Assembly (NCBI GenBank): GCA_938084645.1 | Contig: CALKEP010000011.1 | Location: 1 to 64,000 of the forward strand | Length of the DNA: 64,000 nt | Reading direction: 5' to 3' | From: an uncultured Phycisphaerales bacterium | GTDB lineage: Bacteria > Planctomycetota > Phycisphaerae > Phycisphaerales > SM1A02 | Shown here: positions 27,993 to 35,990 of the stretch, piece after piece | Layout of the letters: the number at the start of each line of letters is the position of its first letter | Position numbering within the stretch: the first letter of the stretch is position 1 | Program-made: the position numbers and the translations under genes | The notes under the pieces: model-generated | What the model was told of the DNA's origin: nothing | Seen by the model: only the letters and a program-made list of their open reading frames with translations | Database searches by the model: none

Positions 27993-28913
27993 ATGAGCGA
28001 AGGACTCGACACCGTCATCGGAGGCGGCGCGATCGATGAGGCGCGAGCCGACGCGGTCTTCAAGCAGGGACTCGACTGCGAGTCCGCGGGTGACCGGCTC
28101 GGTGCGATCGTCGCCTACCGCGAAGCCGTCTCCCATTGTGGCAAGCCGGAGCACCTTCATCGTCTCGCCTACCTGCTCGACCTCGTCGGCGAGGAAGAGG
28201 AGGCGATGCAGATCTACGAGGCCGCGCGAGAGACCGGGACCCCGAAGCTCCAGACACTGATCAACCTCGCGGTGATCTACGAGGACGCCGGCGACTTCGC
28301 CAAGGCCGAGTACATCCTCAATCAGGTGATCGAGAGCGATCCGAACGAGCCGCGAGCCCGTCTTTTCCTCAAGGACGTGCAGGCATCGCGAGGCATGTAC
28401 TACGACGATGACGAGGATCGCACCTCGTCGCGACACGACGCGATTCTCGACATTCCGGTCACCGACTTCGAACTCTCGGTGCGGGCGCGAAACTGCCTGA
28501 AGAAGATGCAGATCCGCACGCTTCGCGACCTGGTTCGCGTGGGCGAAGCGGAACTCAACAGTTACAAGAACGTCGGCGACACCACGGTCGCCGAAATCAA
28601 GCAGATGCTCGCGAGCAAGGGACTCCGACTCGGGCAGGACACCGCGGGCGGACCGCGGCTCCGGCAGGAGGACATCGACGAACTTCACGAGCGAGGCATC
28701 ACCGATCAGATCCTCAACAAGCCGATTTCGGTGCTGGATCTCTCGGTGCGGGCCCGCAAAGCCCTCCAGATGCTCGGCGTGCTTTCGCTCGGCGAGCTGG
28801 CGGCACGAACCGAGGCGGAACTTCTCGGTGTGAAGAACTTCGGCCAGACGAGCCTGGACGAGATCAAGGAGCGTCTGGGCGATCACGACCTGTCGCTCAA
28901 GACCCTCGACTGA
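27993..28913 (+). CDS. TPR protein with two tandem RNA polymerase alpha-CTD-like domains
   Basis: TPR segment (LINLAVIYEDAGDF..A) followed by ELSVRARNCLKKMQI.TL.DL and DLSVRARKAL...LLGVKNFGQTSLDEIK; no alpha-NTD. Confidence 0.9.
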   Translation: MSEGLDTVIGGGAIDEARADAVFKQGLDCESAGDRLGAIVAYREAVSHCGKPEHLHRLAYLLDLVGEEEEAMQIYEAARETGTPKLQTLINLAVIYEDAGDFAKAEYILNQVIESDPNEPRARLFLKDVQASRGMYYDDDEDRTSSRHDAILDIPVTDFELSVRARNCLKKMQIRTLRDLVRVGEAELNSYKNVGDTTVAEIKQMLASKGLRLGQDTAGGPRLRQEDIDELHERGITDQILNKPISVLDLSVRARKALQMLGVLSLGELAARTEAELLGVKNFGQTSLDEIKERLGDHDLSLKTLD

Positions 28914-31292: not shown

Positions 31293-32222
31293 TCAGTGAC
31301 CCGCTCGAGACAGCGTCTTGCCGGTCTCGAAGGTGGGGGTCTCCGGCGTCTCCGGGGACTCCGGGTCGATGTCGAAATCATCCCAGGAGAAGTCCTCCCA
31401 GCCGTCCGAGTCGAGTGACTGACGGGCCCGCTTCTCGTAGTCCGAGCGCGATCCTCGACTCGCCAGCGACTGGAGCTGTGCTTCCTGCACCGTCCGGAGC
31501 TCGGCAAGCTTCGATTCGAGCTGGTCCAGGCTGCCGACTTCCGCGAACTTGTCGTAGTCCGCGAGCACCTGCTGCTGCTGCTGGGTCATCTCGATGAGCC
31601 GTTCGTTGCGATCGATCGCATCGATCTGCCGGTCCAGCTGCCAGAGCTTCGCCTCGTATCGAGCGTGCTCGTCCTCGAGGGTGTCGAGGATCTCCGCGAG
31701 TCGACCCTTCTGAGTGTTGAGGAAGTCCAACTGGGTCTCGTTCCCCGCGTGACGATCCTGGTAGGTCGAGCGAATCGTCGCGATCCGTCTCGCTTCGTTT
31801 CGAGCGCCCTCGAAGTCGACGGTGCGGCCGTCGACCCGGATGGACACCGTGCGTCCGGCGCGGGCATCGAGTTCGGAATCGGTCAGGGCGATTCGGAGTT
31901 CCGAAAGATCCGAGGCGGTCATCGCCACGACCCGTCGGGCGACATCCTGATCACGCTTGAGGAGGTCGATCTGTCGATCGACTTCGGCGAGTTCGCCGGT
32001 CACTTCCGCGATCCGCTCTGGATATCGCTCGGCGAGCTGGGAGAGTTGGCGACGCAGGGCGATCGGATCGTCGACGAAATCATCGGCGACGGCACGGGCT
32101 TGGTTCCGGATCTGGTCGAAACCGGCCGCAATGCGGTCGGGACCGACGATGAAGGCGAGGGTGCCGAGGCCAGCCGCCCCGATCAGCCCCCAACGCAAGA
32201 CGCAACGACTCATGCTGAACAT
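31293..32222 (-). CDS. Membrane-anchored coiled-coil protein, PspA/IM30-like
   Basis: N-terminal hydrophobic segment, DDPIALRRQL (resembles PspA EDP..L.Q), long heptad helices, LDQLESKL....EAQL, acidic tail; AAGGGA RBS. Confidence 0.6.
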   Translation of the reverse strand: MFSMSRCVLRWGLIGAAGLGTLAFIVGPDRIAAGFDQIRNQARAVADDFVDDPIALRRQLSQLAERYPERIAEVTGELAEVDRQIDLLKRDQDVARRVVAMTASDLSELRIALTDSELDARAGRTVSIRVDGRTVDFEGARNEARRIATIRSTYQDRHAGNETQLDFLNTQKGRLAEILDTLEDEHARYEAKLWQLDRQIDAIDRNERLIEMTQQQQQVLADYDKFAEVGSLDQLESKLAELRTVQEAQLQSLASRGSRSDYEKRARQSLDSDGWEDFSWDDFDIDPESPETPETPTFETGKTLSRAGH

Positions 32223-32500
32223 GGGGTAATCCCTTCGGCTCGCATCGATCGTCACTCCGGTGGCCCGATTCGACGGGCCTTGGGAGAACCGGAGTCGTCG
32301 ATGCTCCACGACCTTGATGGGAGACCGTGGTCGTCGATTTCAGGGTGAGACGGGATTTCACGTCCACCTTCACTACAATGGATGCGGACCGGTCCCGGGG
32401 GGGCACGCCGGGCCTCGAACCGCATGGAGTCGACGGAGATCTGTGATTTCCGGTTCTGAAACTCTCGTGGGTCCCCTCCCAACAAGGATGCGTGCTCCTG

Positions 32501-33235
32501 ATGAACCCCATGACGACTTCCTTCATCGCCCGGCTCCGGGATCGGGATGATGCCGCCTGGTTCGAACTCTGGACGGTGTTCGGCCCGGTGATCCGGGCCC
32601 AGCTCACTCGCTGGGGCCGAGGTGCCGTCGGCATGGCCACCGTCGAGGATCTCACGCAGGACACCCTCACCGCGTTGTCGGGTTCGATCGACCGCTTCGA
32701 TCCCGATCGCGGGGCACGTTTCAGCACCTGGCTGCTGTCGATCGCGAAACACGTGCTTGGCGACGAACTCGATCGCCGGAATGCGCTGAAGCGCGGCGGT
32801 GGAAAGCGGCCCGCGACGCTCGACGACAGTTACATGGGGCGATCCACGGATCCGCAGCCCGACGCGGCGTACGAACGACTGGTCTTCCAGGCCAAGGTCT
32901 ACGCGGCGATCGATGCGACCCGGAAGGAGAGCGAGTTCCTCCACTTCGAGGTGTATCGCATGCGGATCTTCGATGCCGCTTCCGGCAAGGACGTGGCGGC
33001 ACAGCTCGGAATCAGCGAGCCGACGGTGACGCGGCATCTCCAGCGGGTCCGGGGACTGCTCCGCGAGCGACTCGTCGAGATGATCGACACCTACAGCTTC
33101 ACCGACGAGGAACGATCCGAGGCGTCGTCCGCGGGCCTCGGAAACGACGACGGTCTCTTCGACGAGGCCATTTCAGAAATCTATCTCACGCATGCCGCGC
33201 TGGTCGAGGACGACTCGACCCTTCCTCCGGGTTGA
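32501..33235 (+). CDS. ECF sigma factor with short acidic C-terminal extension (start 32492-32510)
   Basis: sigma2 (D.AW.EL...F, TVEDLTQDT, FDPDRGARFSTWLLSIA) and sigma4 HTH (SGKDVAAQLGISEPTVTRHLQRVR). Confidence 0.92.
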   Translation: MNPMTTSFIARLRDRDDAAWFELWTVFGPVIRAQLTRWGRGAVGMATVEDLTQDTLTALSGSIDRFDPDRGARFSTWLLSIAKHVLGDELDRRNALKRGGGKRPATLDDSYMGRSTDPQPDAAYERLVFQAKVYAAIDATRKESEFLHFEVYRMRIFDAASGKDVAAQLGISEPTVTRHLQRVRGLLRERLVEMIDTYSFTDEERSEASSAGLGNDDGLFDEAISEIYLTHAALVEDDSTLPPG

Positions 33236-33284
33236 TCGGCATGAAGACCCCGACCGCCCGTCCGACGGGCGAATGGAGTGATCA

Positions 33285-33443
33285 ATGACCTGGGCAAGCA
33301 TCTTTCTCATCTTCATCGGCATCGCGATCGGGATCGTCGGCCTGGCCGTGCTCGTCACGGTGGTGGTGACCGGCTTCCTGGCGTTCACGCGCCGCGGCTC
33401 CGCCGCGGCGACCGAGGTGCAAGCGACGACTTCCGCTCGGTGA
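33285..33443 (+). CDS. Unannotated 52-aa single-pass membrane microprotein, paralog of the kinase N-terminal TM helix
   Basis: GGAG RBS then MTWASIFLIFIGIAIGIVGLAVLVTVVVTGFLAFTRRGSAAATEVQATTSAR*; below the ORF-track cutoff; GC3-rich codons. Confidence 0.8.
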   Translation: MTWASIFLIFIGIAIGIVGLAVLVTVVVTGFLAFTRRGSAAATEVQATTSAR

Positions 33444-33491
33444 TCATGGTTCGAGACGCAATGCCCGCGTGACGGGCGGATGGAGTGGTAC

Positions 33492-35990
33492 ATGACCTTC
33501 GCAAGCATCCTCCTGATCTTCATCGGTATCGCGGCCGGCATCCTGGGGCTGGTCCTGCTCATCAGCCTCATGGTGTCCGCCGGTCGTGGGATCGGGTTCA
33601 TCATCGGTCACCTCGTCGAGTACGTCGTCGGAACCATCCGCGACGCCGCCCGTGCGGTTGGTGCGGTGGTGGCGGCGGTCTTCCTCTCGATCTTCGCGAT
33701 CCTGAACGTGATCATCGGACGATGGTCGGCGGCCAATCACTACGCGGATGGCGTGAAGCGTGAAGCGGGGATGGTCGGCCGAGGGCTGTACGGGGTCGTG
33801 GTGCGTCGGCCGTTGAAGCTCCTCTTCCTCGATGGGGTGCTCGAAGGGGTCGAAGTCCGTGCGGTGGAGGACATCCGGGACGCACCCGGTGCGGACAAGC
33901 CGGCCCGAGGCATCGACTTTCCCGGTTTCGAGATCACCGGTTCGCTTCCGGCGGGCGGGTCCGGCGCGAAACTGTACATCGCGCGGCCCGACGAGAAGAT
34001 GCGGGGTTCGCTGCCGGGGCGACCCGATGCGGTGGTGATCAAGAGCTTTGCGTTGTCGGAAGGCAGTTCGCTTCCCCAGATCGTTCGCGAGAGTCGCTCG
34101 CTCGACTCGGCCAAGCGTCTCGGTCTGGTGCTCGCGCACGAGCTCGACGAGACCCGCTTCTGGTATGCGATGCCGTATCACCCCGGCGATCATCTCGGCG
34201 TGGTGGTGCGGAACGCGCACGGGATCGGTGCCGAGGACGGACTGCGTCACGCAGTGCTCGCGGAGATGCTGCGGTATCAGATCGATCTGGTCGCGACGCT
34301 CGCTCGCTATCACCAGGACGGCCTCTGGCACAAGGACGTCAAGCCCGACAACATCATCGTGCACGACGGGGCGGCGCACCTGGTCGACTTCGGCCTGGTG
34401 ACCTCACTGCGGTCCGCGATGACGCTGACCACGCACGGGACGGAGTACTTCCGCGATCCCGAGATGGTCCGCATGGCGATGCGCGGCGTGAAGGTCCACG
34501 AAGTCGACGGGGCGAAGTTCGACATCTACGGCGCCGGTGCGGTTCTCTACTTCACGCTCGAGAACACTTTTCCGGGCCATGGTGGCCTCAGTCGTTTCGA
34601 ACGCCCGGCGCCCGAGGCGCTTCGGTGGGTCGTCCGTCGGGCGATGGCCGACTACGCGCAGCGTTACGGCTCCGCCGCGGAGATGCTGGCGGACCTTCGG
34701 TTCGTCGCCGAAGCGGCCGATCCCTGGGCGGTGGTTCCCGCGGATCTGCCCTCGATGCGCGGGGAATCGGTCGAACTCGTCGACGCCGACGGACCGGTAT
34801 CGACGCGGGTGGCCGCTGCGGCGCCGCCACCCCGGGTCTCGAACCCGCGTGGATCCTCGATCCCGCCGCGGGAAGTCGGCGGGCGCGGCACGGCGCGTCC
34901 ACGAATCACCGTGACGAACTGGCTGACGGGTGGATACGTCGTCGGTGACGCTTCGTCCGGACCGGGCTCGGTGGTCGGGGGATCCGGTTCCGTTCGACCG
35001 GCGACCGAGCAGGTGGTCGCGGCGCGACGCCGGGCCGGTACCAGACGGGCCAACGCACGCCGCGGTGCGACACGGGTGTCCGCACATCGGCGGACTTCGA
35101 CCACCCTCAAGCTCGTGGCCGCGTCCGGAATCGCCTGCATCGTCGCGTTCGTGATCGGGTTGGCCATGATGGAAGTCGACTTCTCCCAGTCCATGGACCG
35201 CGTCCGCTCCACCTTCGCAGGGGTCAGCCTCGGCCACGAAGAGGCGATCCTCCGCGAGGAGATCGATCAGGCGGTCTCCGAGCTCATGGATCGTGGAGCG
35301 ATCGAGGTCTCGTATCAGGTCGACGACATCCTGCGTTCCGCCGAGATGGTGGAAACGGTGTCCGCGCCTCCGCAGCCGGGCGGCTCCAGTCGGCTCGTGG
35401 TGATCGATGATCGGACCTCGTTCGCCGGTACCGACGCCGATCCTGACGCCATTCTGGCTCCCTTCAAGGAGGCCGGTTGGCGGATCGAAACGGATCCGCA
35501 ACTCGCGGCACAGGCGTCCGTCGCGATGTTCAAGTGTCGGACGTGGGGGGCCGAGTCCGGAGGCGGGCTCGGCGATCGGGATGTTCTGGCCGAGTCCTTC
35601 GCATGTCCGCCGTTGAATTCATTCCGTGCCGACAGCGACGTCGAAGCGGTGCTGCTGATGCTCACCGTCGACGAGGAAGCGGGCGGTCACGCGTCGCGGA
35701 CCCGCCTGGTGCTGATCGGTGACGAGGCGATCGAGGTCGCCATGCGGAATGCGATCTACGTGGACGTGGAAGCGCGGTGGCCGGATGGGCGTCGTGAGAT
35801 CATCACCGTGGAGGTCGACGGGGTCCGGGACGACGACGGCACGATGAATCCCGCCGATTCGGTCGACGGTGATTCCGTGAATGATGCCGACGGGCGGGGT
35901 GGGTCCGGCTGGATTCTCGATTTGAATCGGGAATCAGGGCGGACCGTCGACGTGCATACGGGACCGATCCACATTCGCATCGCCGCCTGA
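33492..35990 (+). CDS. Membrane Ser/Thr protein kinase (N-terminal TM helices, kinase, TM, probably extracytoplasmic C-domain)
   Basis: AGGSGAKLY, VVIK, HKDVKPDN, DFG, HGTEYFRDPE, DIYGAG; start moved to ATG 33492 after GGAG. Confidence 0.9.
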   Translation: MTFASILLIFIGIAAGILGLVLLISLMVSAGRGIGFIIGHLVEYVVGTIRDAARAVGAVVAAVFLSIFAILNVIIGRWSAANHYADGVKREAGMVGRGLYGVVVRRPLKLLFLDGVLEGVEVRAVEDIRDAPGADKPARGIDFPGFEITGSLPAGGSGAKLYIARPDEKMRGSLPGRPDAVVIKSFALSEGSSLPQIVRESRSLDSAKRLGLVLAHELDETRFWYAMPYHPGDHLGVVVRNAHGIGAEDGLRHAVLAEMLRYQIDLVATLARYHQDGLWHKDVKPDNIIVHDGAAHLVDFGLVTSLRSAMTLTTHGTEYFRDPEMVRMAMRGVKVHEVDGAKFDIYGAGAVLYFTLENTFPGHGGLSRFERPAPEALRWVVRRAMADYAQRYGSAAEMLADLRFVAEAADPWAVVPADLPSMRGESVELVDADGPVSTRVAAAAPPPRVSNPRGSSIPPREVGGRGTARPRITVTNWLTGGYVVGDASSGPGSVVGGSGSVRPATEQVVAARRRAGTRRANARRGATRVSAHRRTSTTLKLVAASGIACIVAFVIGLAMMEVDFSQSMDRVRSTFAGVSLGHEEAILREEIDQAVSELMDRGAIEVSYQVDDILRSAEMVETVSAPPQPGGSSRLVVIDDRTSFAGTDADPDAILAPFKEAGWRIETDPQLAAQASVAMFKCRTWGAESGGGLGDRDVLAESFACPPLNSFRADSDVEAVLLMLTVDEEAGGHASRTRLVLIGDEAIEVAMRNAIYVDVEARWPDGRREIITVEVDGVRDDDGTMNPADSVDGDSVNDADGRGGSGWILDLNRESGRTVDVHTGPIHIRIAA

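Follow-up and report, generated by a model that had tools for sequence, protein, structure and literature searches.

Locus layout

The DNA studied here (the window) comprises the first 64,000 nt of the forward strand of contig CALKEP010000011.1 from an uncultured Phycisphaerales bacterium (GenBank assembly GCA_938084645.1), and our subject is a short open reading frame (ORF) in it, located between the gene of a sigma factor of the extracytoplasmic function (ECF) type and that of a Hanks-type kinase. An original prediction, made by a model from the sequence alone, had drawn attention to this unlisted ORF and it proved to be real: 52 codons at 33285–33443 (+), between the ECF stop codon at 33235 and the kinase start at 33492. 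The ECF gene (32492–33235, +) is of the kinase-associated type (Pfam Sigma70_r2, E = 2e-12) and carries Thr50 within its sigma-2.2 motif (TVED). The kinase gene (33492–35990, +; start codon ATG at 33492) encodes a membrane Ser/Thr kinase of 832 aa (Pfam Pkinase, E = 2e-14) with VVIK, HKDVKPDN and DFG motifs. Hydropathy placed hydrophobic helices at residues ~3–29 and 53–79 of the kinase, followed by the kinase domain, a further transmembrane (TM) segment at ~541–560 and a C-terminal outer domain.

Both the ORF and the kinase are preceded by the same arrangement, in which GCCCG-N5-CGGGC is followed by GGAG, then 6 nt, then ATG. The first copy, serving the peptide, occupies 33256–33284 (+), with its 5-bp hairpin at 33256–33270 and GGAG at 33275–33278; the second, serving the kinase, lies in a 48-nt spacer (33444–33491, +; hairpin at 33463–33477, GGAG at 33482–33485). 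Neither a sigma-70 promoter nor a terminator was found in 32200–33600. Contigs from RNA libraries, in two runs of one study, bridged the peptide and the kinase, and one also included the ECF gene, which fits an operon transcript; these came from four of 24 listed runs that were examined, and such contigs cannot reveal strand, level or translation. By layout the two genes share strand and operon, and stretches that lacked RNA cover were not taken as silent.

Chimeric origin of the small gene

The start of the ORF and that of the kinase form a 117-nt direct repeat (33256–33372 versus 33463–33579; 76% identity) without gaps and with the 207-nt spacing originally predicted. Over codons 1–23, 17 residues are identical, four codons (8, 12, 16 and 19) differ synonymously and six residues are replaced, all of them hydrophobic (W/F, F/L, I/A, V/L, A/V, V/L). 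When the genome was compared with itself by BLAST to find close direct repeats, this repeat scored E = 1e-16 and was among the eight of 55 matches lying outside a single long frame. The hairpin–GGAG–ATG pattern occurred exactly twice in the genome at ≤ 1 mismatch, in agreement with the claim that hairpin and ribosome site had been duplicated as well. Across 14 spacers the hairpin was paired in 68 of 70 cells, a count inflated by related sequences, and two pairs had changed on both sides; the hairpin is older than the duplication.

What the original prediction missed was the ECF origin of the peptide's tail and stop codon. Protein databases yielded seven clusters of the peptide at 90% identity (among 1021 candidates), 58–98% identical to that of the window, and the last 13 columns of their stop-anchored profile matched the ECF C-terminus (last 13 codons and stop at 33194–33235, +). 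Only nine of 7467 control frame ends scored higher, the 13-column window being the best of seven tried and the signal weakening with longer windows. At the nucleotide level, eight peptide–ECF pairs were equalled by 6 to 461 of 7561 controls, depending on the pair. The ECF residues A40, E44, D45, D46, T48 and G52 recurred across the seven peptide clusters. In addition, the 48-nt spacer after the peptide was homologous along its whole length to the single 49-nt ECF–kinase spacer of two related genomes, G006 and G003.

Taken together, the tail match and the spacer homology point to a single border-spanning event. Very probably, one tandem duplication of ~ 207 nt, covering the 3′ end of the ECF gene, the spacer and the 5′ start of the kinase gene (from ~ 13 codons before the ECF stop to ~ 30–40 codons into the kinase), created an in-frame gene with a kinase head and an ECF tail and left both parents intact. 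As judged from the alignments, the hairpin, ribosome site, start and first helix of the ORF (residues 1–29, kinase helix 1) are inherited from the kinase, and its last codons (residues 40–52) and stop from the ECF gene. Codons 30–39, remodelled to FLA-x-x-RR, matched neither parent beyond chance (248 of 3000 random stretches scored as high as the best match); their derivation from kinase codons 35–42 by deletion and frameshift looked plausible by eye, was not significant and was rejected. The equal offsets between ECF stop and peptide stop and between peptide start and kinase start reflect similar spacer lengths only and provide no independent evidence.

Three kinds of related sequence were recorded alongside. 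Protein P0014, from one 501-nt contig, combines the body of the peptide with a kinase-like 5′ end (Phe3, upstream in-frame start), which suggests either that one repeat copy was converted by the other or that the assembly is chimeric. In run X16, a contig of a more distant relative departs from the window at 33259, where a different hairpin arm, GGAG and ATG follow, representing another spacer variant. Further close, diverged direct repeats outside one long frame were located elsewhere in the genome of the window (G000; contig positions C1:62925, C9:47526, C22:111626, C38:6672, C57:21550 and C75:61); these are candidate cases of small genes in tandem or of similar duplications across a gene border.

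Distribution and age

Thirty kinase loci were drawn from 41 related genomes. In 29 of them the ECF gene immediately preceded the kinase, the remaining locus being ended by a contig edge, and the peptide was present in two (G000 and G002). Most of the other ECF–kinase spacers measured 15–59 nt; one of 204 nt (L012) held no such ORF, and at three loci with a misplaced automatic start (L017, L027 and L030) the frames showed short spacers too. Among 304 genomes of the family, a profile search recovered the full peptide in two and kinase heads in four, together with six weak matches (E 5e-4 to 9e-3) in long frames or across stops, which were treated, without extraction, as hydrophobic noise. HMMER over 1.84 billion representatives returned three family members and one unrelated repeat protein, and nothing further. 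A metagenome scan with the single peptide gave no confirmed locus among 596 pattern matches; a scan with the DNA pattern gave three loci. The 52-residue length holds in all seven clusters; among their members, 22 of 25 are 52 aa long and three have a 4-residue upstream extension. Named members are metagenome-assembled genomes of Phycisphaerales or Phycisphaeraceae, and the runs holding peptide DNA were marine, seawater or estuary wherever labelled; runs X17–X24, which had small word shares, were not drawn on. Given this narrow distribution (two of 304 family genomes, seven clusters), the gene is, on the sequences sampled, young, and its range is limited to a few sister species of marine Phycisphaerales.

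The genomes G000, G002 and G006 are nearly equidistant (86–87% identity), and a seven-gene tree joined G002 and G006 weakly (79% support). The peptide was absent from G003 and also from G006, which may have lost the gene through a past reversion, or may never have received it. A further locus (L038), consisting of one 1433-nt contig and possibly misassembled, was a mosaic in which the ECF gene was 2% from that of G002, the kinase 1.5% from that of G000, and the peptide 19–23% from both. Unless it is a misassembly, this suggests that peptide alleles move independently of the kinase, as at a recombination hot spot.

Tests of selection

An open frame and a good ribosome site would be expected even in debris because the duplication supplies them, and selection was therefore tested separately. 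Four distinct DNA alleles of the peptide were available (G000, G002, L037 and L038; L036 equals G000 within the peptide), and codon models were fitted to sets of three alleles under four frequency schemes, with the transition bias either fixed or left free (16 fits). The ratio of non-synonymous to synonymous rates (omega) was 0.15–0.29 for codons 2–37 (p = 1e-5 to 0.003 in all 16 fits), and 0.73–0.83 for codons 38–52, not different from 1 (p > 0.5). Codons 29–39, which are unmaintainable by conversion from the kinase, gave an omega of 0.20 (p = 0.03). The kinase itself was far more constrained (0.07–0.11). A counting dN/dS of 0.64 was obtained for the peptide against the kinase in this genome (codons 2–29), a comparison which alone is no evidence of selection. 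The stem branch gave no support for a burst of positive selection (stem omega 0.28–0.45, not different from the crown).

In neutral simulations without indels, start, stop and frame were retained in 1–11% of three-allele runs, and in ≤ 0.4% of runs residues 2–34 remained without any charged or amide residue, His or Pro. The claim that the ORF is selected rather than debris was supported by the low omega of its head, its fixed length, and the kept hairpin and start signals. Findings that the original prediction had named as damaging to it were seen in part: the ORF is lacking in a close relative (G006), no locus carrying the duplication was broken, and dN/dS came near 1 in the tail only (~ 0.8). 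We conclude that the ORF is probably not debris. It is highly likely, with translation read from the evidence of selection, that the gene product is made and has been kept as a single-pass protein of the inner membrane, its tail being a free, near-neutral appendage.

Peptide sequence and predicted membrane topology

Mean hydropathy over residues 3–34 was 2.4–2.6 in all seven clusters. Residues 2–34 were without a charged residue (7/7 clusters, 22/22 protein rows) and were followed by a net charge of +1 to +3 (7/7 clusters), suggesting a single helix with its tail inside. Under the positive-inside rule a positively charged tail is placed on the inner side, and Arg-Arg at 36–37 accordingly suggests an N-out, tail-in orientation.

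Seven residues fixed among the peptides (W3, I15, T29, F31, L32, A33 and R37) were absent from the nine closest kinase clusters. They remove the Gly-Arg-Gly break of the kinase, and the peptide is therefore no longer a plain kinase copy; the proposal of a simple mimic of the kinase's TM helix gave way to that of a chimera of kinase head and ECF tail with seven new fixed residues. Residues G16 and G19 are invariant in the peptides. Positions 5, 12, 16 and 19 share one helix face and are small in all 22 peptide rows and in all nine closest kinase clusters. No described small-protein family was matched by sequence (Pfam; HMMER over the representatives above; Atlas, best score 0.81), and there was no match to the MgrB family of Pfam. 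Matches to the Pfam PspC TM and DUF6458 families were weak, hydrophobic and under the cut-off, and were rejected.

The kinase N-terminal domain

The N-terminal 130 residues of the kinase (33492–33881) make up a domain undescribed in this kinase family, which is conserved and predicted to fold as a membrane-associated helical hairpin: an AF2 model of residues 1–130 showed a helix at 3–75, a turn at GRW and a helix at 78–110 (pLDDT 91). The domain had no match in Pfam, and a fold search of the model against the PDB returned nothing at E ≤ 0.001. After helix 1, residues D51, R77, W78, P107 and L113 are invariant. One orthologue (L027 in G023, ~ 616–1500) has its membrane head separated from the kinase domain by an insert of ~ 140 aa, which is Pro-rich at first and hydrophobic thereafter.

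According to the available part of PMC13147305, it is typically the outer domains that dimerise kinases of this class. With a separate TM segment at ~ 541–560 beside the outer domain, helix 1 need not be a dimer interface. Complex prediction for kinase residues 1–115 with the peptide, both given as alignments, scored 0.00 against a mark of 0.32 and counts neither way.

The ECF circuit and neighbouring genes

Thr50 of the ECF sigma factor (32639–32641) was invariant in 28 of 28 orthologues covering the site (29 ECF matches in total), within a TVED or TVRD motif. TVED was placed on DAED by sequence reading, with the motif taken from the available part of PMC8999054, and Thr50 is a candidate phosphorylation site. 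As in kinase-associated ECF groups, the ECF gene has no anti-sigma neighbour.

A divergent gene for a membrane-anchored coiled-coil protein (31293–32222, −) is conserved beside the ECF gene. It lay there in 22 of the 30 loci reaching it, was found in four of five distant genomes, and is conserved across families. The protein belongs to no Pfam family. Its AF2 model is a long helical hairpin, for which Foldseek matches to Vipp1/PspA reached E 1.6e-3 to 5.7e-3 only, none at ≤ 1e-3. The helix layout and the weak fold matches suggest a protein distantly related to PspA/Vipp1 that has its anchor at the N-terminus and a beta-hairpin tip; as the likeness is sub-significant, this and a role in membrane stress are leads only. 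Near the ECF module, at 27993–28913 (+), lies a gene whose product, a TPR protein, also contains two C-terminal domains of the RNA polymerase alpha type (Pfam RNA_pol_A_CTD, E = 3e-38).

Proposed function and alternatives

We consider it possible, at somewhat less than even confidence, that the peptide is an accessory single-pass modulator of the kinase-regulated ECF module. Co-expressed with its parent kinase, it would pack on the N-terminal membrane domain of the latter via the small-residue stripe at 5, 12, 16 and 19, and not strictly via GxxxG. It would most likely damp or tune kinase activation, with tuned phosphorylation of the ECF factor (at the candidate Thr50) and tuned output to the divergent coiled-coil gene as the consequence. 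The peptide would be an optional accessory of the signalling module. A fuller version, which as a whole we hold to be unlikely, makes the peptide a natural bacterial microProtein: a helix fragment of a Hanks kinase, born in a one-step duplication and acting as a dominant modulator of its parent kinase, whose alleles can be exchanged, gained or lost among sister species and would set the gain of a phosphorylation-activated sigma-factor circuit.

Several observations weigh against this explanation. While selection on the ORF was supported, the second half of the original interpretation, heterodimerisation through GxxxG, was not established. G12 is Ala or Ser in 6/22 peptide sequences (3/7 clusters), and the motif is missing in most kinase orthologues: GxxxG occurred anywhere in residues 4–30 of 16 of 47 kinase relatives, nine of which are the closest clusters. 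Outside this closest clade it was present in 7/38 kinases, near the ~ 17% background of hydrophobic 23-mers in long frames of this genome (172/1006). Within the N-terminal domain of the kinase, conservation is lowest in helix 1, which mostly lacks GxxxG and so may be a plain anchor and not an interface. Over residues 2–29 the peptide evolves faster than its parent helix (73% versus 90% mean identity). Matched change was not seen, as the kinases P0030 and P0031, likely partners of Ala12 peptides, keep Gly12 (the link between kinase P0031 and peptide P0020 is inferred only from contigs of equal size, 6371). Should helix 1 of the kinase be N-in, peptide and helix would have opposite orientations. 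The pairing of a near-identical kinase with a 19%-diverged peptide in L038 implies, unless misassembled, that pairing is not allele-specific. The peptide is dispensable in equally close relatives, G006 being as close as G002. Without L038, when only G000 and G002/L037 remain, omega was 0.31–0.40 and not significant (p 0.12–0.19). The ribosome site of L038 is weaker (duplex −4.1 versus −5.9 kcal/mol), and protein databases contain called, intact ORFs only, by which apparent conservation is inflated.

The last few of these points, from the absence in G006 (and G003) onwards, also speak for a functionless ORF decaying after a duplication from which start, ribosome site, frame and stop were all inherited. 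Such debris would need no selection to account for any of the expression signals, and in GC-rich DNA, where stops are rare, 47–65% of neutral three-allele runs had no internal stop. Against it stand the three-allele omega, which is well below 1 in the head only, and the charge-free residues 2–34 kept in every protein row. None of the four other DNA loci carrying the duplication (G002, L036, L037 and L038) was broken, and G002 and L038 had been located via the kinase and are thus free of intact-ORF bias; the indels observed (1 nt and 18 nt) lay in spacers and none in the ORF. We regard decay as improbable. A role in cis, in which translation of the short ORF is selected for coupling, mRNA protection or the kinase-to-sigma ratio and the product is merely harmless in the membrane, appears just as improbable. 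It would agree with a length of 52 codons that is fixed even in the neutral tail, with the hairpin and GGAG kept in both copies, and with a peptide stop that has taken the place of the ECF stop, 48 nt ahead of the start of the kinase. It does not predict an omega of 0.2 in the head versus 0.8 in the tail, nor invariant W3, G16, G19, F31, L32, A33 and R37, and in L038 an 18-nt insertion has entered the spacer that precedes the kinase.

The peptide could also be a stand-alone small membrane effector, a duplicated helix that came under ECF operon control, was remodelled (W3, a longer hydrophobic run, an Arg-Arg stop-transfer) and self-associates or binds a partner other than the kinase, e.g. the divergent coiled-coil protein. 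This reading, which we rate as rather unlikely, draws on the seven newly fixed residues that differ from all nine closest kinase clusters, on the constraint on the new FLA-RR segment itself, on a second small face (4, 14, 21 and 25) that has arisen, and on the independent assortment of the L038 allele from the kinase. In the available part of PMC12648545, moreover, the function of small membrane proteins can depend on hydrophobicity more than on sequence. Its candidate partner is, on the other hand, named only by proposal, the PspA likeness of that neighbour being below significance, and the kinase-like stripe at 5, 12, 16 and 19, on which modulation of the kinase would depend, has been retained.

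Significance and comparison with known systems

The origins of bacterial small membrane proteins are usually untraceable; here both parents, single-copy relatives (G006 and G003) and diverged alleles are available. The steps can be read in order: a duplication, expression signals taken over with it, a remodelled helix end, and then purifying selection on the membrane part only. Border-spanning duplication within an operon may thus give an expressed, membrane-targeted, co-regulated protein at once, and if the peptide regulates its parent kinase, this would be a general route to new feedback parts that could be screened for genome-wide. The case concerns a small clade of uncultured marine bacteria, with a function proposed from sequence. 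No description of the peptide or locus was found in the literature searched, outside of which lay the primary EcfP paper, the ECF classification supplements and most subscription papers.

The closest likeness in origin is to the short-junction tandem duplications at Staphylococcus aureus sigH (nusG'-'sigH and rplK'-'sigH), as described in the available part of PMC3486894. There, too, the downstream gene contributes its head with ribosome site and start, joined in frame to the upstream gene, likewise that of a sigma factor, and the parents are left intact. That type has a short direct repeat at the junction; in the present gene codons 30–39 resemble neither parent above chance level. The sigH product is a near-complete sigma factor, from duplications that are rare and soon revert. 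In the present case no more than 13 sigma codons were captured and the working part is the membrane helix of the kinase; the copy is fixed, 76% identical to its parent, represented by seven clusters and under its own selection, and not transient.

The nearest kinase-associated ECF groups are ECF43 (EcfP/PknT, EcfK/PknS) and the planctomycete ECF59, 61, 62 and 217 (available parts of PMC7826278, PMC8999054 and PMC13147305). As in these, the present sigma factor lies beside a Hanks kinase, lacks an anti-sigma factor and has a conserved Thr at the sigma-2.2 motif. Unlike them, it keeps acidic residues in this motif (TVED/TVRD rather than STTA), and its kinase has an extra N-terminal membrane domain without a Pfam match. 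The same parts of these papers mention no small protein in the groups described.

Small membrane proteins that regulate kinases include MgrB, SafA and UgtS, all acting on PhoQ (PMC12648545, in the part available). The peptide resembles them in its ~ 50 residues, its one membrane helix and its encoding within the circuit, and some of them are likewise lineage-restricted accessories. It shares no sequence likeness with them; their targets are histidine kinases, not described there as the parents of these small proteins, and their binding has been demonstrated, whereas the present peptide is known from sequence alone. Plant microProteins (available part of PMC7318236) offer the other parallel, in which a larger signalling protein has a truncated paralogue that, by heterodimerising, could interfere with it; the peptide indeed shows homology to a single domain of a larger protein encoded by its own genome. 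In that source all characterised cases are transcription factors, those of receptor kinases being engineered or proposed; the peptide, by contrast, is bacterial and chimeric, and the helix it shares with its parent is a putative oligomerisation surface only. On balance, the ORF probably codes for a small membrane protein that is functional and restricted in lineage; its birth is traceable to a duplication across a gene border, and it may act in the manner of MgrB or of a plant microProtein.

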